Shown here piece by piece: positions 22,690 to 31,640 of a stretch of DNA of 64,000 nucleotides. Location: sequence record MN508624.2. One strand, 5' to 3'. How positions within the stretch are numbered: position 1 is the stretch's first letter; the number at the start of each line of letters is the position of its first letter. The DNA is from Enterobacter phage EC-F2. The notes under the pieces were generated by a model, which worked only from the letters and a program-made list of their open reading frames with translations, was not told the DNA's origin and searched no databases. The position numbers and the translations under genes were made by a program.

Positions 22690-23733
22690 ATGTTTGTGAA
22701 ATATTCTTCTCTGACTAACCATTATGAAGGTAAATTCATCAATGGTGTGATCATGAATGGTTTGACTGGTGGCGTGTGGGTTGCGCGTGAAAAGATCCAC
22801 GGGGCTAACTTTAGCCTGATCACTTCTGACGGTATCAAAGTCATTCCGGCAAAACGTAGCGGAGAAATTCTCCCTACTGAACAGTTCTACGGTTGCGAAC
22901 CAGTAGTTGCAAAATACTCTGAATCCGTCCGCAAGCTGTGGGAAATGATCTCTACTGCCCGTCAGATTAGCGGCGTGTATGATGATGAACTGGTTATCCA
23001 GGTATACGGCGAATTCGCGGGGCGTGGTGTCCAGAAAGATGTTGACTACGGCGAAAAAGATTTCTACGTATTTGATATCCGCATGAATGGCGAATTCCTC
23101 CCTGATAACGTTGTAGCCACGTATTCCGTTGCTGTAGGTCTGAAAATGGCTCCACTGCTGGCATACGGTACGTTTGACGAGATCCGCGCATTGCCTATCA
23201 CCTTTGATTCGGTGGTTAACCTGGCGAACTCCGGTGCGATCCCTGCAAAGAACGGCGTTGAACCTGAGTTCAAAAACTTCATGACGCTGAAAGATGGTGA
23301 AGGTGAGAACATCGCAGAAGGTTTCGTGATGAAGCCTGTTCAACCCGCTTTCATGCCGAACGGTGAACGCGTTGCAATCAAATGCAAAACGACGAAGTTC
23401 ACAGAGAAGAAGAACAAGCAAGCGAACCGCTTCAATGCTCCTTCTGAACTGTCAGAAACAGACAAAGTGAAGCTGAACGAATTCACCTGCTACCTGACTG
23501 AAAACCGCGTGAAAAACGTTCTGTCCAAAATTGACAGCGCGAATCTCACCGCTAAAGATTTCGGTCGCGTGATGGGGCTTACGGTACAGGACGCGCTGGA
23601 AGAAATCGAACGTAACTACGGGCCTTTCCTGGAACAGTTCGAAAATCCAACGCTGGCGAAGAAAACCTTCACTAACGAAGCGTCAAATCTGGTTCGTGAG
23701 AACTGGGGCGCAATCCTGAACAATGAATTTTAA
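22690..23733 (+). CDS. rnlB: RNA ligase 2 (RnlB, T4 gp24.1 family)
   Basis: The first ~40 aa are nearly identical to T4 Rnl2 (MFxKYSSLxNHY...LTGGxWVAREKIHGxNFSLI with the adenylated Lys in KIHG). It is collinear through VAIKCK and GxVMGLTVQD. Confidence 0.95.
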   Translation: MFVKYSSLTNHYEGKFINGVIMNGLTGGVWVAREKIHGANFSLITSDGIKVIPAKRSGEILPTEQFYGCEPVVAKYSESVRKLWEMISTARQISGVYDDELVIQVYGEFAGRGVQKDVDYGEKDFYVFDIRMNGEFLPDNVVATYSVAVGLKMAPLLAYGTFDEIRALPITFDSVVNLANSGAIPAKNGVEPEFKNFMTLKDGEGENIAEGFVMKPVQPAFMPNGERVAIKCKTTKFTEKKNKQANRFNAPSELSETDKVKLNEFTCYLTENRVKNVLSKIDSANLTAKDFGRVMGLTVQDALEEIERNYGPFLEQFENPTLAKKTFTNEASNLVRENWGAILNNEF

Positions 23734-24304
23734 AACTGTTCTCGAAAACGCAAAAACGGCTACCCTGATCGGTAGCCGTGAACCCCCTGAACGTATCGCG
23801 AGTATAGCCATAAAGATTGGACGTGCTTTAAGTGATCGGGGGATATTCGCTTACTCTGGTGGTGCTCCTGGAATGGATAGCCATTTCATGTTTGACTACT
23901 CACCAGAAAGACGGCGTATAATCCTCCCTGAGAACGGTTTTAACGGGTTGTATTCGAATGGTAAGGATATCATCGACTATACAGAATACGACACGTACAA
24001 AGCCGCTGACGAAGCGAGAAAGGTAGCTGGACACTTCGACAACCAAAGCGAATGGACACAACGCCGATACGCTCGCAATTCAATGCAGGTATTAACCGAA
24101 AACCTGGACAAACCTACAGATTTTGTTCTATTCTGGGCGGTAGAGAAAGATTTTTGTGTTAAAGGTGGTACTGCGATCGCTGCAAGGCTTGCCAGATTGT
24201 ATAAAGTTCCAACGTTCAACCTTTGGAATCAAAACGTTCTGGATGAAGTCTGCGATACTTTAGGGATTAACACTAAACCTCCTACTCTGGATTTTCTCTG
24301 GTGA
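23723..24304 (+). CDS. DprA/Smf-like Rossmann-fold (SLOG superfamily) protein
   Basis: 193 aa. LIGSREPP...SGGAPGMDSHFM matches the DprA core (GSRN...SGlArGID.aAH). It overlaps rnlB by 11 nt. Confidence 0.45.
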   Translation: MNFKTVLENAKTATLIGSREPPERIASIAIKIGRALSDRGIFAYSGGAPGMDSHFMFDYSPERRRIILPENGFNGLYSNGKDIIDYTEYDTYKAADEARKVAGHFDNQSEWTQRRYARNSMQVLTENLDKPTDFVLFWAVEKDFCVKGGTAIAARLARLYKVPTFNLWNQNVLDEVCDTLGINTKPPTLDFLW

Positions 24305-24835: not shown

Positions 24836-24864
24836 GTTGACGGGAGTTATGAGTGTGGTAATAT
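24836..24864 (+). promoter_or_regulatory. Early-type promoter (AAAAACTTGTTGACG-N16/17-TAATAT) embedded in a CGGGAG/CTCCCG stem-loop (PeSL-like cassette)
   Basis: Same -35 context as the promoter at 16171. The hairpin 24841-24872 encloses the -10. Confidence 0.5.
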
Positions 24865-24904
24865 AGCTCCCGTAGACAAGACACTAACCTAAAAGGAAAA
24901 CATC

Positions 24905-25156
24905 ATGGAAATCAAATTAGTACCTACTTGCGCTGGCTACTGCTTGGCACTGAATGGTGTAGCACACAACGGTAAAGGCTTACGGGCTAACGTTGAAGCA
25001 ATGCTGAACGAACTGTGTGCGGTTTATGAATATGATGACGTTGCAACCAGCGTTAAAATCATAAGCCTTGAAAAAGATGGTGTTAACTGTGCGGGTTGGT
25101 GGGATTGCTACATCGACTATAGCGACAACCGGGTCTTCTTACTGACCAGCAATTAA
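24905..25156 (+). CDS. Hypothetical protein (83 aa)
   Basis: ORF directly downstream of the promoter cassette. Confidence 0.4.
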   Translation: MEIKLVPTCAGYCLALNGVAHNGKGLRANVEAMLNELCAVYEYDDVATSVKIISLEKDGVNCAGWWDCYIDYSDNRVFLLTSN

Positions 25157-25165
25157 GGATCGAAC

Positions 25166-25630
25166 ATGTTTGGAATGAATGAGTGTTCAGAAGCGGAAGC
25201 GCTCGAAGATTGGGCTGACTTTGATGACCTTGATCTCGATAATGAATATGGAGAATTCTTCTGTGTTGGGCGCGGGGTTGAAAGAACAAAGCGTGAACTT
25301 CGAAGCCGTTTAGCAATGGGGCGTACTGTTGGATCTGGAAAGAAACAACAAGTTAAATATTCCGATGGTTCGATTCGAAATGAAACGGTTGTCAAAGAAG
25401 TAAACGGGCGTGTCATTACGTCCGAGCGGCAGAAGGACATCAAACAATTGTACGATGTTGCAAAAGCCGCTAAAGTAGGAACCATGATCACTTGTCCTAC
25501 GTGCAAAGAGTTGCACAAGAAGACGACATATCATAAGGTGTTCTGCTCTAATGGTAAAAAATCCAGGAAAGACTGTAAGAGTAAATACTGGAACACGATC
25601 CATCCAGAACGGTTGGATCGTATATTTTAA
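25166..25630 (+). CDS. Hypothetical protein with an acidic N-terminus and a CPTC...C..C zinc-ribbon-like segment
   Basis: 154 aa. Confidence 0.4.
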   Translation: MFGMNECSEAEALEDWADFDDLDLDNEYGEFFCVGRGVERTKRELRSRLAMGRTVGSGKKQQVKYSDGSIRNETVVKEVNGRVITSERQKDIKQLYDVAKAAKVGTMITCPTCKELHKKTTYHKVFCSNGKKSRKDCKSKYWNTIHPERLDRIF

Positions 25631-25652
25631 TCAAAACGTGGAGTACGTTTAA

Positions 25653-27086
25653 ATGCAAAAATTTAATGAACTGAATAGCCTGATCACCTCAACTGATTCC
25701 TATAAAGTGTCCCACTGGTTGCAGTATCCACAAGGCACTGATGCAGCGATGTTCTATATTGAATCTCGCGGTGGTAAGTTTGATGAAGTAGTAACCGCTG
25801 GCGTTAACTTCGTTGCGCGGGTTCTTGCTGAACCAATTACCATGAAACAAGTTGAGTTGGCACGGGTACTTTACCGTAAGCACTTTGGGAAAGAGATTTT
25901 CAACTACGAAGGGTGGAAGAAGATCGCAGAACTGGGTTATGTCCCTGTTACTTTCCGTGCGATCCCAGAAGGTACGGTTGTTCCGGTTAAAAATGCCGTT
26001 GCGACTGTGTACGCCGAACGTGAATTCTCATGGTTGGCTGGGTGGCTGGAGACAATGACGATTCGCGGTATCTGGTATCCGTCATCTGTAGCAACGCTAT
26101 CGCGCGAGTGTAAAAAGGTTCTGGCTCATTACCTTGATATGACTTCTGACCTGACTGGTGAAGCATATAACATCACACTGGGTACACGTCTGCATGATTT
26201 CGGGGCGCGTGGCGCGACCTCTGCTGAATCTGCTGGTATTGGTGGGCTGGCACACCTCTATAACTTCATCGGGACTGATACCGTTGAAGGTATGATTATG
26301 GCAATCAGTCTGTTTGCGGACTATCAAACTCTGTTTGACGAAGTTGAAAACGTCGAAGCAATCGGTGTTTCAATTCCGGCTCGCGAACATTCGACTACGA
26401 TTTCCTACGGTAAAGAGAACGAAGACGAAGCATACAAAAACAGCATCGAAATGTTCGGTACAGGGTTCTACGCTTGTGTGTATGATTCCTGGGACTATAA
26501 AGGCGCTGTAGATCGCATCGCTGAATATAAAGAGCAAATCATTGCTGCGGGTGGTACTCTGGTTGTTCGTCCTGATTCCGGTGATATGATTGATAACATC
26601 ATGTACACCCTGCGTAAACTGGGCGAAATCTTCGGATACACCGTAAACAGCAAAGGTTACAAAGTTCTGCATAATTCAGTTCGCATCATCCAGGGCGACG
26701 AGATCCACGGGCCGGAAACAATCAACCGTGTGTTAAGTTGGATGGAAGCGAACAAGTGGGCGAGTGATAACATCGCGTTCGGTATGGGCGGCGGTTTGCT
26801 GCAAGAAGTTACCCGCGATACTCAAAAGTATGCTGAAAAACTGTGCGCTATCCGCGTGAATGGTGTGTGGAAAGGCGTTTACAAATGCCCGAAAGGTTCC
26901 GAGTGGAAACAGAGTAAGAAAGGTTTGCTGATGACCATCACTAACGGTGTGGAATTCAGAACGATCGACACTCTCGAAACAGAGATTCCTGACGGGTGGC
27001 GTGATGCGATGATTACGTATTACGACAACGGTGTATTAAACACCTCCGATACAGTAGGGGTTATCCGTGAGCGAGCAAGGATTTAA
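25653..27086 (+). CDS. nadV: Nicotinamide phosphoribosyltransferase (NAMPT/NadV)
   Basis: 477 aa. The N-terminal DSYK.SH motif and LHDFGARGATS, typical of NAMPT, are present. The size is right. Confidence 0.85.
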   Translation: MQKFNELNSLITSTDSYKVSHWLQYPQGTDAAMFYIESRGGKFDEVVTAGVNFVARVLAEPITMKQVELARVLYRKHFGKEIFNYEGWKKIAELGYVPVTFRAIPEGTVVPVKNAVATVYAEREFSWLAGWLETMTIRGIWYPSSVATLSRECKKVLAHYLDMTSDLTGEAYNITLGTRLHDFGARGATSAESAGIGGLAHLYNFIGTDTVEGMIMAISLFADYQTLFDEVENVEAIGVSIPAREHSTTISYGKENEDEAYKNSIEMFGTGFYACVYDSWDYKGAVDRIAEYKEQIIAAGGTLVVRPDSGDMIDNIMYTLRKLGEIFGYTVNSKGYKVLHNSVRIIQGDEIHGPETINRVLSWMEANKWASDNIAFGMGGGLLQEVTRDTQKYAEKLCAIRVNGVWKGVYKCPKGSEWKQSKKGLLMTITNGVEFRTIDTLETEIPDGWRDAMITYYDNGVLNTSDTVGVIRERARI

Positions 27087-27375
27087 TATCCGCGCCAACG
27101 ATAACGGATCAGTAGTCTTCTACAACAATCAGCCCCTTGTCGCTCGCAAGGGGCTTTTTTGTAAGTTGGTGGGCTACGGGTTCAAGTTGGAACAGGTGGA
27201 CAACGCGACACTGAAAGAGATTGTTCGGATCGCTTATCTTTTGAAAGATAAAAAAGATGAACATCGTGCTATTGCAATGCTTGAGAAATTAGGCGAAAAT
27301 CATTGCTTCGTGGTGAATCGTGGGTATAAGTACGAAACGATCGCCTTATTTGAAAAAGGGTTAAGTGAACTATGA
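27067..27375 (+). CDS. Hypothetical protein (102 aa)
   Basis: Overlaps the nadV 3' end by 20 nt. Confidence 0.4.
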   Translation: MSEQGFNIRANDNGSVVFYNNQPLVARKGLFCKLVGYGFKLEQVDNATLKEIVRIAYLLKDKKDEHRAIAMLEKLGENHCFVVNRGYKYETIALFEKGLSEL

Positions 27376-28223
27376 GTTACTTGGGTGTTATTCCCTATAC
27401 AGGCAACAAGCAATCACTATTGCCTGAACTCTTCAAGCTGTTCCCAGAAAGAAGCTCGTACATGCGTTTTATTGATTGTTTTTGCGGTGGCCTTAGTGTG
27501 TCGTTAAACGTCCCTAAACCCGTTCTAAGCAACGATTATGATAAGACGCTGATTGATATGTACAAGCGTCTTCAAATGCTTCCTGACCTCTCTCCGGTGC
27601 GAGAATTGATTGAATCAAAGGGGCTGGGGAAGAACAACAAAGAAGAGTATTTGAAATTCCGTGAAGAGTACAATCAGAACAAAGATCCGTTGTGGCTCTA
27701 TGTCCTGATCCTGCATTCGTTCAGCAACGTAAACCGGACAAACGAGAAAGGCGATTTCAACGCTAATTTCGGATGCCGGACACTGAACGGGGCAACGGAA
27801 AAACGCTTCGAGCATTTTAAAAAGAATGTGCGAGGCATTGAGTTTACCAGCGGGTCATTCAAGGATATTGATATATGTCTGAATGACTTTGTGTATTGCG
27901 ATCCTCCGTACCTGATCACCGATGCGGTGTACAACAAATTCTGGAACGAAGAACGCGAACGTGAGCTATATGCTTTCCTGGATAAACTGAATGATGCGGG
28001 GATCATGTTCGGGCTGTCCAACGTGACTCACCATGCCGGAAAACAAAATGATATCCTGATTGAATGGATGCAGAAATACCGCGTTCATAATCTGGATAAA
28101 AAGTATCTGTTAGGCCAGCATACCGACTCTTACGAGCAAAACAAAACGCAAGAAGTCTACGTGTGCAACTACCAGAAACGCGACGTAAATACATTCCCTT
28201 CAACACTAAATGATTTAATGTAG
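27372..28223 (+). CDS. dam: DNA adenine methyltransferase (Dam)
   Basis: YTGNKQSLLPEL...FCGGLSVSLNV...DPPY aligns with T4 Dam (AYTGNKQSLLPEL..FCGGLSVSLNV..DPPY). Confidence 0.95.
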   Translation: MSYLGVIPYTGNKQSLLPELFKLFPERSSYMRFIDCFCGGLSVSLNVPKPVLSNDYDKTLIDMYKRLQMLPDLSPVRELIESKGLGKNNKEEYLKFREEYNQNKDPLWLYVLILHSFSNVNRTNEKGDFNANFGCRTLNGATEKRFEHFKKNVRGIEFTSGSFKDIDICLNDFVYCDPPYLITDAVYNKFWNEERERELYAFLDKLNDAGIMFGLSNVTHHAGKQNDILIEWMQKYRVHNLDKKYLLGQHTDSYEQNKTQEVYVCNYQKRDVNTFPSTLNDLM

Positions 28224-28531: not shown

Positions 28532-29014
28532 ATGCTGACGAAACGAATTACCAAAAAAGACTACCCAACTATCAAGCAAGCCCTCTTTGAAAAACAAGGG
28601 GGGCGTTGTGCTCTCTGTAAACGTCCTCTTGAGGGTGAGATCGAAAAACATCACCTCGACCATGACCATGCTTTAGACGGCGAAAACGCCGGACGCGTGC
28701 GCGGCCTACTGTGTAACCTATGTAACGGTACAGAAGGTATTGTGAAGCACAAATTCAACCGATCCGGTCTTGTGTCCCGTGATGTAGATTACATCCAGTG
28801 GTTAGAGAACTTGCTTGCATATCTGAAACAAGACTATTCCGAAAACCGTATTCATGACAAATTCATACCAGATAAGGTAAAATGGTTTTCAAGACTTACC
28901 AAACCTGATATGATTGCCGAAATGGTTTCTATGGGCTTCGAGTACGCCGACAAAGACGAACGCAAAGCCTTAACCGCGAAATATAGAAAGCAATTAATGA
29001 AGGCAACGAAATGA
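28532..29014 (+). CDS. 49: Endonuclease VII (gp49), Holliday-junction resolvase
   Basis: HLDHDH..G..AG.VRGLLCNLCN..EG..KHKFNRSGL...VDYI.WLENLL.YLK is collinear with T4 gp49. Confidence 0.95.
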   Translation: MLTKRITKKDYPTIKQALFEKQGGRCALCKRPLEGEIEKHHLDHDHALDGENAGRVRGLLCNLCNGTEGIVKHKFNRSGLVSRDVDYIQWLENLLAYLKQDYSENRIHDKFIPDKVKWFSRLTKPDMIAEMVSMGFEYADKDERKALTAKYRKQLMKATK

Positions 29015-29517
29015 ATGAAAAATATACGGAACTTGATGAACTTCTCAAGTGCGTAAGTGTAGACATTTGTAGCGGTGTTGTTACGTGGACTAAGCCAACA
29101 AACCGAAAAATTTGTATAGGCCAATCTGCTGGTGTTGTTGATAAAAACGGGTATACTGTTATCGGGTTCAAAGGGAAGAAATTCTTCCGACACCACGTTA
29201 TATGGTATGCGATTCATGGTACACTACCAGAAAAACCGTATGTTATTGATCATGTTCACGGAGTTGAACGTGGCGATGGGGTTTCGAACCTACAAAAGAT
29301 TACACAACAACAAAACATCATGAAGAAAAAGGTTCAGAGAAATAATAAATCTGGACATAAAGGCGTACATTGGTGCAACACATACAACAAATGGGTTGCA
29401 AAAATAAAGTTCAATGGAAAATCAATTTATATCGGAGAGTATGACGATTTGAATGATGCTATCAACGCAAGAATTCGCAAATCTCAAGAACTCTTTGGTG
29501 AGTTTGGAGAAATATAA
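29011..29517 (+). mobile_element. Freestanding HNH endonuclease with a C-terminal AP2 DNA-binding domain (mob/I-Tev-like homing endonuclease)
   Basis: HNH core IDHVHGVERGDGVSNLQKITQQQN, then AP2-like SGHKGVHW...NKWVAKIKFNGKSIYIGEYDDLNDAINARIRK. It is inserted between gene 49 and nrdD. Confidence 0.75.
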
Positions 29518-31640
29518 TGCTTGTAGAAAAACGCGACGGCAAAACCGTTGATTTTGATAAAGAAAAAATTCGCAACGCTGTGTATAAAGCTGGCGGGACT
29601 ATGACGGATGCTGATGCCGCAATCATGCTGGTTCAGTACAATCAGATCCGCGATGGTAGCGCAATGAAGATCGCCCGTATCCAGGAACTCGTTGAAGAAT
29701 CCCTGATGAAAACGAACCCAGCGGTCGCCCGTGCATACATCGAGTATCGCCACGATCGCGATATTGCCCGTGAACAGAAAAGTAAATTGTTCAAAGATAT
29801 CTCCGGCATGGTGAATCTGTCCAACAAAGAGATCACCAACGAGAACGCGAACAAAGACGCAAGGGTATTCCCGACACAGCGCGATTTGCTGGCGGGTATC
29901 GTAGCGAAGCATTTCGCCCGTAATCATATCCTTCCGAAACACATCGTAGAAGCGCATGACTCCGGCGACATCCACTATCACGATCTGGATTATAGCCCGT
30001 TCACCCCTTACACTAACTGCTGTCTGGTTGACCTGAAAGGTATGCTGGAGAACGGTTTCAAAATGGGTAACGCGGACATCGAACCGCCTAAATCAATCGG
30101 TGTTGCTACCGCTCTCATGGCGCAGATCACCGCACAGATTGCTTCTCACCAGTACGGCGGGACAACCTTTGCAAACGTGGATAAGGTACTGGCTCCATAT
30201 GCTCGCATGACGTATGAAAAACACGAAAAAGAAGCAAGGAAATACGGTATTTCTGGCGATCGTACATACGCGATGGAAAAGACCGAAAAAGATGTATTCG
30301 ATGCGTTCCAGTCCTATGAATATGAAGTGAATACCCTGCATACTGCCAACGGACAAACACCATTCGTTACCATCACTTTCGGTACGGGTACGGGCATGTT
30401 TGAACGCATGATCCAGAAAGCAATTCTGAAAAACCGTATTCGCGGCCTGGGTAAAGAGGGTATCACTCCGGTATTCCCTAAACTGGTTATGTTCATGGAA
30501 AAAGGCGTTAACCTTGATCCAGAGGATCGCAACTATGACATCAAAAAACTTGCCCTTGAATGTGCTTCGAAACGCATGTACCCAGATATCATTAGTTCAG
30601 CTAATAACCGCGCTATTACTGGTTCTAGCGTTCCTGTATCTCCTATGGGTTGTCGCAGTTTCCTTAGCGTGTGGCATGATGATAACGGTAATGAAATTCT
30701 GGATGGACGTAATAATCTGGGTGTGGTGACAATCAACCTTCCACGTATTGCGATCGAAGCCGAAGCACAGGAAGAAGAAGACGCGCACGATGCATTTTGG
30801 CGTATCCTTGATGAACGTCTGGAACTGTGCTTTGAAGCCCTGATGACTCGTATCGATAGCCTACGCGGTGTTAAAGCCAGTGTAGCCCCGATCCTGTACA
30901 CAGAAGGTGCTTTTGGTGTCCGACTGAAACCGGATGATGAAATTCTGGAACTGTTCAAAAATGGGCGTAGTTCTATCAGTCTGGGCTATATCGGGCTGCA
31001 TGAAACGCTGTTGATGTTCGGCTCCGGTCAACATCCATTCGATCGCGTTGGCTCTCAAAATGTGGGTAAACTGATTCTGGAATATCTACACGCTGCGACC
31101 GAAGCATGGAAAAAGAAAACTGGATTCGGGTTCAGTCTGTATTCAACCCCAGCGGAATCGCTCTGCCATCGCTTCTGTAAGCTGGACTTTGAGAAGTTCG
31201 GAAGCGTCAAGGGGATCACGGATAAAGGCTGGTACACAAACAGTTTCCACCTTGACGTTGATCGCAAGGTGACACCGTTCGAGAAAATCGACTATGAAGC
31301 CGATTATCATTACATCGCTACTGCTGGTCATATCAGTTATGTTGAATTCCCTGATATGAAAAACAACCTGCAAGCCCTGGAAAAAGTCTGGGATTATGCG
31401 ATGGATAAACTGGACTACTTCGGGACTAACCTTCCGGTCGATAAGTGCTTTGTATGTGGCTCTGATGACGAGTTCACGCCTACAGAAGACGGTTTCCACT
31501 GCAAACACTGCGGTAATCATGATCCGGCTAAAATGAGCGTCACGCGCCGTACATGCGGTTATTTGGGTGCTCCTGCTGTCCGTGGTTTCAACGACGGTAA
31601 GAACAAAGAAATGATGCACCGAACTAAGCATCAAAATTAA
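29517..31640 (+). CDS. nrdD: Anaerobic ribonucleoside-triphosphate reductase (NrdD)
   Basis: 707 aa with an N-terminal ATP-cone (VEKRDGKTVDFDKEKI). The C-terminal glycyl-radical region is RRTCGYLGAP, and a Zn site is CxxC....C.HC. The ORF is uninterrupted (no intron). Confidence 0.9.
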   Translation: MLVEKRDGKTVDFDKEKIRNAVYKAGGTMTDADAAIMLVQYNQIRDGSAMKIARIQELVEESLMKTNPAVARAYIEYRHDRDIAREQKSKLFKDISGMVNLSNKEITNENANKDARVFPTQRDLLAGIVAKHFARNHILPKHIVEAHDSGDIHYHDLDYSPFTPYTNCCLVDLKGMLENGFKMGNADIEPPKSIGVATALMAQITAQIASHQYGGTTFANVDKVLAPYARMTYEKHEKEARKYGISGDRTYAMEKTEKDVFDAFQSYEYEVNTLHTANGQTPFVTITFGTGTGMFERMIQKAILKNRIRGLGKEGITPVFPKLVMFMEKGVNLDPEDRNYDIKKLALECASKRMYPDIISSANNRAITGSSVPVSPMGCRSFLSVWHDDNGNEILDGRNNLGVVTINLPRIAIEAEAQEEEDAHDAFWRILDERLELCFEALMTRIDSLRGVKASVAPILYTEGAFGVRLKPDDEILELFKNGRSSISLGYIGLHETLLMFGSGQHPFDRVGSQNVGKLILEYLHAATEAWKKKTGFGFSLYSTPAESLCHRFCKLDFEKFGSVKGITDKGWYTNSFHLDVDRKVTPFEKIDYEADYHYIATAGHISYVEFPDMKNNLQALEKVWDYAMDKLDYFGTNLPVDKCFVCGSDDEFTPTEDGFHCKHCGNHDPAKMSVTRRTCGYLGAPAVRGFNDGKNKEMMHRTKHQN

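Follow-up and report, generated by a model that had tools for sequence, protein, structure and literature searches.

A nicotinamide phosphoribosyltransferase gene of a T4-like phage (RB43/GAP161 type) as the probable NadV member of a split NARP2

Phages that encode a nicotinamide phosphoribosyltransferase (Nampt, or NadV) of the type found in phage KVP40 also encode a nicotinamide-nucleotide adenylyltransferase (Nmnat) in 94% of cases; the pair has been named NARP2 and occurs in approximately 1.1% of phage genomes (Osterman et al., bioRxiv 10.1101/2024.02.11.579819). The stretch of phage DNA considered here, referred to below as the window (64 kb in total length), raises the question of what a NAMPT gene does when no such partner is in sight. 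A first-pass annotation had recognized the gene, nampt, had seen no sign of a partner in the genes on either side, and had left three possibilities: a partner beyond the window, the use of host enzymes, or a non-canonical partner among the small neighbouring genes. We consider it very probable (about 90%) that nampt encodes the NadV/Nampt enzyme of a split NARP2 in a T4-like phage of the RB43/GAP161 type, with its NadM/NatV partner about 72 kb away and outside the window; the partner appears to be missing because of the window boundary. The features on which the argument draws are collected in Table 1.

Table 1. Features of the nampt locus and of the distant partner gene in a close relative (coordinates are those of the window unless another genome is named)
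Feature	Coordinates	Strand	Basis
DprA-like/SLOG protein, 193 aa	23723-24304
Sigma-70-like promoter match (TTGACG, spacer of 16 nt, TG-extended TAATAT), within the 87 bp that precede ORF83	24837..24864	+	consensus scan
ORF83, conserved small gene upstream of nampt	24905..25156	+	PHROG 7372; 71% identical in KP15
ORF154, variable acidic N-terminus, then conserved C-terminal CPxC...C...C zinc-ribbon-like domain	25166..25630	+	alignment
Shine-Dalgarno-like GGAG, 9 nt upstream of the nampt ATG	25640..25643	+	direct sequence reading
nampt/nadV, nicotinamide phosphoribosyltransferase of 477 aa, probable first NARP2 enzyme	25653..27086	+	Pfam, NCBIfam, PHROG and PDB matches
ORF102, conserved small gene, GTG start overlapping the nampt 3' end	27067..27375	+	PHROG 7497; 70% identical in KP15
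Terminator-like hairpin (10-bp G+C-rich stem, 5-nt loop, then T6 run)	27131..27161	+	scan
Extra homing-endonuclease-like ORF, relative to UPEC03	29011-29517
UPEC03 'NadM family nicotinamide-nucleotide adenylyltransferase / ADP-ribose pyrophosphatase', 351 aa	130599-131654 (UPEC03)	-	annotation and domain checks

The nampt reading frame is intact, running from its ATG without interruption. Its product has the full-length domain organization of a NAMPT/NadV protein, an NAMPT_N domain (PF18127, E = 2.7e-23, residues 10-93) followed by an NAPRTase TIM-barrel domain (PF04095, 8e-38, residues 179-427). The match to the NCBIfam equivalog PRK09198 scores 460 bits, above the curated threshold of 405, and covers model positions 5-462 of 465; among the PHROGs, the protein falls into number 448 ('nicotinamide phosphoribosyl transferase', 5e-164). 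Solved NAMPT structures are also matched over their full length: the bacterial NAMPT-related 7yqo at 1e-106 and the human enzyme (3dgr/2gvg) at 4e-85. By tblastn, the protein is 49% identical to KVP40 NadV over 89% of the query. On this sequence evidence the product is a genuine phage NAMPT/NadV, as the first-pass annotation had proposed, and both of the motifs that it quoted (DSYKVSH and LHDFGARGATS) are present.

The active site leads to the same identification. Residues were mapped through a phmmer alignment to 3dgr, the numbering of which was taken as that of human NAMPT. In the human enzyme Asp219 confers nicotinamide specificity and His247 is the site of autophosphorylation, and the catalytic and substrate residues also include Tyr18, Phe193, Arg196, Arg311, Asp313, Gly353-Asp354, Gly383-385 and Arg392. 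Among the 21 human residues mapped, 19 are identical in the window protein, the exceptions being Ser275, which is replaced by Ala, and Val242, which is replaced by Ile. The correspondences, human residue first, are D16/Y18 with D15/Y17; H191/F193/R196 with H181/F183/R186; D219 with D209; H247 with H246; D279 with D278; R311/D313 with R306/D308; G353/D354 with G348/D349; G383-385 with G379-381; R392 with R388; and K400/K415/K423 with K396/K411/K419. The residues for nicotinamide, for PRPP and for the phospho-histidine are thus all kept, and the catalytic Asp/Arg constellation, looked at as the point on which the identification might fail, is present. The phage protein resembles the human and bacterial enzymes in its full-length homology and conserved active-site residues; it differs from human NAMPT in its cellular context and in the Ala at the position of Ser275.

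The window belongs to an RB43-like, pseudo-T-even phage of the RB43/GAP161 group (Pseudotevenvirus), and its gene content spans the terminase and head genes, rnlB, nrdD, the long tail fibres, rIIA/B and the topoisomerase genes. Around nampt, the identity to Escherichia phage UPEC03 (Straboviridae, Pseudotevenvirus) is 98.5%, and several myophages of Cronobacter, Enterobacter, Klebsiella and Citrobacter with genomes of about 178 kb, GAP161 among them, reach 97-98%. By megablast the whole window is colinear with positions 755-64109 of UPEC03. For 27-52 kb of the window, Enterobacter phage EC-F1 comes closest (97.2% identity). No database record is identical to the window, and its exact NAMPT protein is absent from public assemblies; IMG/VR contigs with 99% NAMPT protein identity reach only about 95% DNA identity to the window. 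The local gene order (srd, rnlB, the DprA-like gene, small ORFs, nadV, a small ORF, dam, nrdC, gp49, nrdD) is common to the window and its pseudotevenvirus and KP15 relatives, and is seen around nampt in GAP161, RB43, RB16 and Lw1 (Pseudotevenvirus) as well as in KP15 (Slopekvirus). From these relatives the window differs only in mobile-element content: it has the extra homing-endonuclease-like ORF, and it lacks an extra methyltransferase that UPEC03 has. The start of the DprA-like gene overlaps the rnlB stop. At the protein level, the Nampt of GAP161 is 99% identical, and that of KP15 73% identical, to the window NAMPT.

Within the window no partner enzyme was found, in agreement with the first-pass annotation. 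A tblastn search of the 64 kb with the NadM, NudE and macro proteins of a relative returned nothing below E = 0.9, and a regular-expression scan of all 349 stop-to-stop segments with 60 aa or more revealed neither a Nudix box (consensus GX5EX7REUXEEXGU) nor a nucleotidyltransferase HxGH motif; the sole match of the motif scan, a loose one inside NrdD, was rejected as spurious. If the genome measures about 178 kb, the window holds about 36% of it and leaves some 114 kb outside.

In UPEC03 a candidate partner (QUL77060.1) is annotated far from nampt (Table 1). Its protein matches the Pfam families CTP_transf_like in its N-terminal part (6e-8) and NUDIX in its C-terminal part (5e-14), and carries both an HxGH motif (in GRFQPFHNGH) and the Nudix box GGHKNANETFLDCAIRELLEEVRI. 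Over its full length it matches PDB 2qjo, the Synechocystis protein slr0787 described as 'Bifunctional NMN adenylyltransferase/Nudix hydrolase', at 2.7e-54, and also 2qjt/2r5w, and 98% of its length aligns with KVP40 NatV at 40% identity. Matches to the NCBIfam bifunctional NMNAT/Nudix models reach 1e-73 yet stay below the equivalog cut-offs, and the protein is therefore treated here as a family member and not as a named equivalog. On the 178,307-bp, circularly permuted UPEC03 map the gene and nampt are separated by about 72 kb, a distance that would put natV about 47 kb to the left of the window or about 66 kb to its right. The same spacing is found in GAP161, with nampt at 149632 and NadM at 76122. 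Bifunctional Nudix/NMNAT proteins have been described in the literature as common in pseudo-T-even phages. Besides NadM, the genomes of the relatives encode another Nudix protein and a protein with a macro domain.

The joint occurrence of the two genes was surveyed by tblastn against 50,697 phage records. In the RB43/GAP161 clade, NAMPT was found in 62 records (at least 90% identity) and NadM in 61 (at least 80%); in the KP15/Slopekvirus clade the corresponding figures are 117 and 115 (60-80% identity for both proteins). When the best 60 NAMPT and the best 60 NadM matches were compared by accession, 58 of the 60 were in common. The two entries with NAMPT only are OK210075.1, a record of 61.6 kb, and NC_007023.1, the RefSeq twin of AY967407.1, which stands last among the best 60 for NadM. 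Every full-length record (175-182 kb) among the 60 closest carries both genes, EC-F1 is among the records that have both, and each of the six IMG/VR contigs with a close NAMPT relative also encodes a relative of NadM. A canonical natV elsewhere in the genome, which the first-pass annotation had said would make the locus an ordinary split NARP2, is thus present in every complete relative, about 72 kb from nampt, and of its three suggestions the one that placed the partner outside the window is supported. From these relatives we infer that the genome of the window has natV as well, with a residual uncertainty of about 5-10%. In Cronobacter phage leE the NAMPT is annotated as two CDS, indicating that the pathway can decay in individual genomes.

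The locus was also compared with the known NAD+ reconstitution systems. The archetype of NARP2, KVP40 NadV and NatV, comprises the same two protein families as the window NAMPT and the NadM of its relatives: the window gene is a KVP40-type Nampt homologue, and an Nmnat homologue is encoded in the same genome in close relatives. KVP40 is likewise a T4-like phage (Straboviridae) with the two genes far apart (natV at 94.5 kb, nadV 43 kb further on at 138.2 kb); it differs in host range, infecting Vibrio where the window clade infects Enterobacteriaceae, and in the genes that flank nampt. The Nampt proteins of GAP161 (JN882287_00240) and KP15 are already listed as 'Nmnat-associated' (Osterman et al., bioRxiv 10.1101/2024.02.11.579819, Table S2). 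Two other systems were set aside. The Namat of NARP1, a nicotinamide ADPR-transferase, belongs to the same superfamily as the window NAMPT and shares the purpose of rebuilding NAD+, but it uses ADPR-PP from an adjacent Prs-like Adps, and none adjoins the window nampt: the neighbours of nampt have no Pfam or NCBIfam match, and neither an Adps nor any pyrophosphokinase is annotated in UPEC03. For NARP3 (NadR and PnuC), neither gene is annotated in UPEC03. The 'Nmnat-associated' listing of the GAP161 homologue speaks against both.

By analogy with KVP40, for which the conversion of nicotinamide and PRPP to NMN and PPi has been shown (via Osterman et al., bioRxiv 10.1101/2024.02.11.579819), the window Nampt would make NMN from nicotinamide and PRPP, probably via a phospho-histidine at His246 (human His247). 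The distant, bifunctional NadM/NatV would then join NMN and ATP to give NAD+. The Nudix domain of NadM-Nudix enzymes hydrolyses ADP-ribose, and that of the partner probably does the same. Together the two proteins would rebuild NAD+ from the nicotinamide freed by host NADase defences, such as TIR or SIR2 effectors, or would raise NAD+ generally during infection. Both the enzyme activities and the counter-defence role are carried over from work on KVP40, the pair of which abolishes defence by type I Thoeris and by DSR2 (Osterman et al., bioRxiv 10.1101/2024.02.11.579819). The first-pass annotation was right in framing the gene within NARP2. The range of defences that it listed as countered (Thoeris, DSR, SIR2 and SEFIR) was shown in the same study for NARP1; the assays of NARP2 there covered type I Thoeris and DSR2.

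The same enzymes could also serve a metabolic purpose, supplying NAD+ for the nucleotide and energy metabolism of the phage or for phage enzymes that consume NAD+, whether or not a host NADase is at work. NARP2 still raises NAD+ in cells that have no defence system (Osterman et al., bioRxiv 10.1101/2024.02.11.579819), and nampt lies among genes of nucleotide metabolism (rnlB, dam, nrdC, nrdD, nrdG). Against this purpose stand the abolition of two defences by the KVP40 pair and the macro-domain and second Nudix proteins of the relatives, which fit a toolkit for ADPR/NAD conflict. We regard a metabolic purpose as possible but somewhat doubtful; the metabolic and the counter-defence roles are not mutually exclusive.

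It has also been proposed that viral SLOG domains bind or degrade ADPR-derived immune signals (Iyer et al. 2022). That the nampt neighbourhood takes part in NAD/ADPR counter-defence beyond NARP2, with ORF83 and ORF154, which appear to have conserved promoter-like and terminator-like elements in common with nampt, regulating or assisting it, or with the DprA-like/SLOG protein binding or degrading such signals, seems unlikely to us.

For ORF83, ORF154 and nampt, transcription as one unit is suggested by two consensus matches, the promoter-like site before ORF83 and the hairpin behind nampt. The -35 hexamer of the promoter-like site is kept in all aligned relatives, including KP15, in which a 'putative middle promoter' is annotated in the corresponding intergenic gap, and the site may drive early expression of nampt. 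The hairpin begins 45 nt past the nampt stop codon and has an RNA minimum free energy of -19.6 kcal/mol (z = -3.7). Its stem is invariant in nine aligned sequences (the window and eight relatives, including KP15) apart from one position in L007, and a third-codon position that adjoins the loop varies; it may be a terminator, an attenuator or a stabiliser of the mRNA 3' end.

A third reading is that NAMPT stands alone: the phage would have no NMNAT, and host NadR, or PncC followed by NadD and NadE, would turn NMN into NAD+. The window does lack an NMNAT or Nudix gene, and in tblastn the phage records that match the NAMPT family (2017) far outnumber those that match the NadM type (467), indicating that other lineages have NAMPT-family genes without NadM, many of which are homologues of the NARP1 Namat. 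In the lineage of the window, NAMPT and NadM occur together in all of the full-length records among the closest 60, and the expected position of natV is in the part of the genome that lies outside the window. A stand-alone NAMPT is thus very improbable here.

The small genes around nampt are the remaining place for a partner. The first-pass annotation placed ORFs of 83, 154 and 102 aa correctly and saw no HxGH or Nudix signature in them, and the regular-expression scan (segments of at least 60 aa) likewise found neither motif in any of the three. The KP15 counterparts of these three, and of ORF147 further upstream, are 41-71% identical to them; Pfam and NCBIfam gave no match for any of the four, and their PHROGs carry no assigned function. 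Compared with the NadM profile by hhalign, the four give probabilities of 0.3-1.0% (0.6% for ORF83, 0.4% for ORF154 and 1.0% for ORF102). The AF2 model of ORF154 has a mean pLDDT of 66, with residues 1-41 below 50 and confidence in the C-terminal part only, and a PDB fold search with this low-confidence model gave no match better than E = 0.2; the protein is predicted to consist of a disordered acidic tail and a zinc-ribbon-like domain. In the two distant T4-like phages checked, Aeromonas phage 44RR2.8t and KVP40, no counterparts of the small ORFs are found beside NAMPT, and the small ORFs are therefore regarded as part of the local gene order of the lineage and not as travellers of NAMPT. ORF83, ORF154 and ORF102 are not NMNAT or Nudix proteins; since a canonical partner exists, no enzymatic role is left for them to fill. 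That one of the three is nonetheless a non-canonical NMN adenylyltransferase or ADPR-processing partner, as the first-pass annotation had entertained in treating the locus as an anomaly, is scarcely credible: the three are co-oriented and tightly packed with nampt, may share (ORF83 and ORF154) its promoter and terminator, and are conserved across the RB43 and KP15 groups, but they are too short for the nucleotidyltransferase fold (archaeal NMNAT chains in the PDB have 168-181 aa) and show no HxGH or Nudix motif, no Pfam or NCBIfam domain and no NadM profile match, nor, for ORF154, a fold match.

We return, then, to a split NARP2 as the best explanation of the locus. Published work already covers the two genes, their separate location and their occurrence in phages of the RB43/GAP161 and KP15 groups. 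Since the genes of NARP2 are typically tens of kilobases apart, not seeing the partner in 64 kb of a 178-kb genome does not show that the genome lacks it. For those Klebsiella, Enterobacter and Cronobacter phages of the two groups that are candidates for phage therapy, the pathway, by analogy with KVP40, would be predicted to give some resistance to NAD+-depleting defences.

A small gene that begins at the end of rnlB (RNA ligase 2, 22690-23733), its start overlapping the rnlB stop by 11 nt, encodes a 193-aa protein in which GSR...SGGAPGxD...GGT motifs are conserved, and which matches the PHROG 768 family ('DprA-like') and, weakly, Pfam PF02481. Its AF2 model (mean pLDDT 95.7) retrieved Helicobacter pylori DprA as the top Foldseek match (1e-6, TM 0.56), followed by ShosA, the SLOG domain of ThsA, LOG and YpsA. 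The product is a stand-alone SLOG/DprA-type Rossmann domain, encoded ~1.3 kb upstream of the nicotinamide phosphoribosyltransferase gene (nampt), and viral SLOG domains have been proposed to process signals derived from ADP-ribose (ADPR) (Iyer et al. 2022). Homologues carry other names: the version in the close relative UPEC03 is shorter and annotated 'FHA domain-containing protein', and that of Pantoea phage Phynn is annotated 'RNA ligase'; both labels look wrong.

Features in the nampt region and in UPEC03
Feature	Position	Strand	Remarks
DprA-like/SLOG gene	23723-24304	+	193 aa
Promoter-like site and inverted repeat, before ORF83	24837-24880	+	
Terminator-like hairpin	27131-27161	+	GCCCCTTG, 7 nt, CAAGGGGC, then T6
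168-aa ORF	29011-29517	+	between gp49 (endonuclease VII, 28532-29014) and nrdD (29517-31640)
Macro-domain protein	UPEC03 135208-135705		outside the window; annotated O-acetyl-ADP-ribose deacetylase
Separate NudE-type Nudix hydrolase	UPEC03 150312-150725		outside the window; 2.5e-16

The macro-domain protein of UPEC03 matches Pfam Macro (3e-6) and, weakly, ThsA_Macro; with this gene and the NudE-type hydrolase present in relatives, the clade therefore has several ADPR/NAD-related genes besides NARP2, the NAD+ rebuilding pathway to which nampt belongs. In the Vibrio phage KVP40, a second, divergent NAPRTase-family gene (KVP40.0259, AY283928.2 134159-135052) lies ~3 kb upstream of nadV, and its product shares 24% identity with the NAMPT of the window (E = 7e-5).

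The hairpin listed in the table is situated 45 nt past the nampt stop, in the 5' part of the overlapping ORF102, over the codons for PLVARKGLF. Across nine aligned sequences (the window and eight relatives, including the more distant KP15) the stem is invariant except at one position in the relative L007; because it is nearly invariant while an adjoining third-codon position varies, the alignment suggests constraint on the hairpin at the RNA level. In the KP15 homologue of ORF102, the annotated start codon falls at the foot of the hairpin. Upstream of nampt, a GGGAG...CTCCC inverted repeat brackets the promoter-like site before ORF83 and spans its -10 element; this repeat is kept in the relatives RB43, RB16, Lw1, CfP1 and KP15.

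Downstream of nampt, gene content varies among relatives. An extra DNA methyltransferase gene of ~840 bp separates ORF102 from dam in UPEC03 (27186-28025) and several relatives and is missing from the window (at 27375), GAP161 and others, a presence/absence polymorphism directly downstream of the nampt unit. The 168-aa ORF is absent from UPEC03, whose alignment with the window breaks at 29015/29523; where the ORF lies and how its sequence reads both suggest an inserted homing endonuclease.

In Cronobacter phage leE (KX443552.1/NC_048646.1, 151780-154470) NAMPT is annotated as two coding sequences, so that the gene may be disrupted; NadM, its adenylyltransferase/Nudix partner, is intact there (96.9% identity). 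A true disruption of leE nampt would show that single genomes can let the pathway decay.
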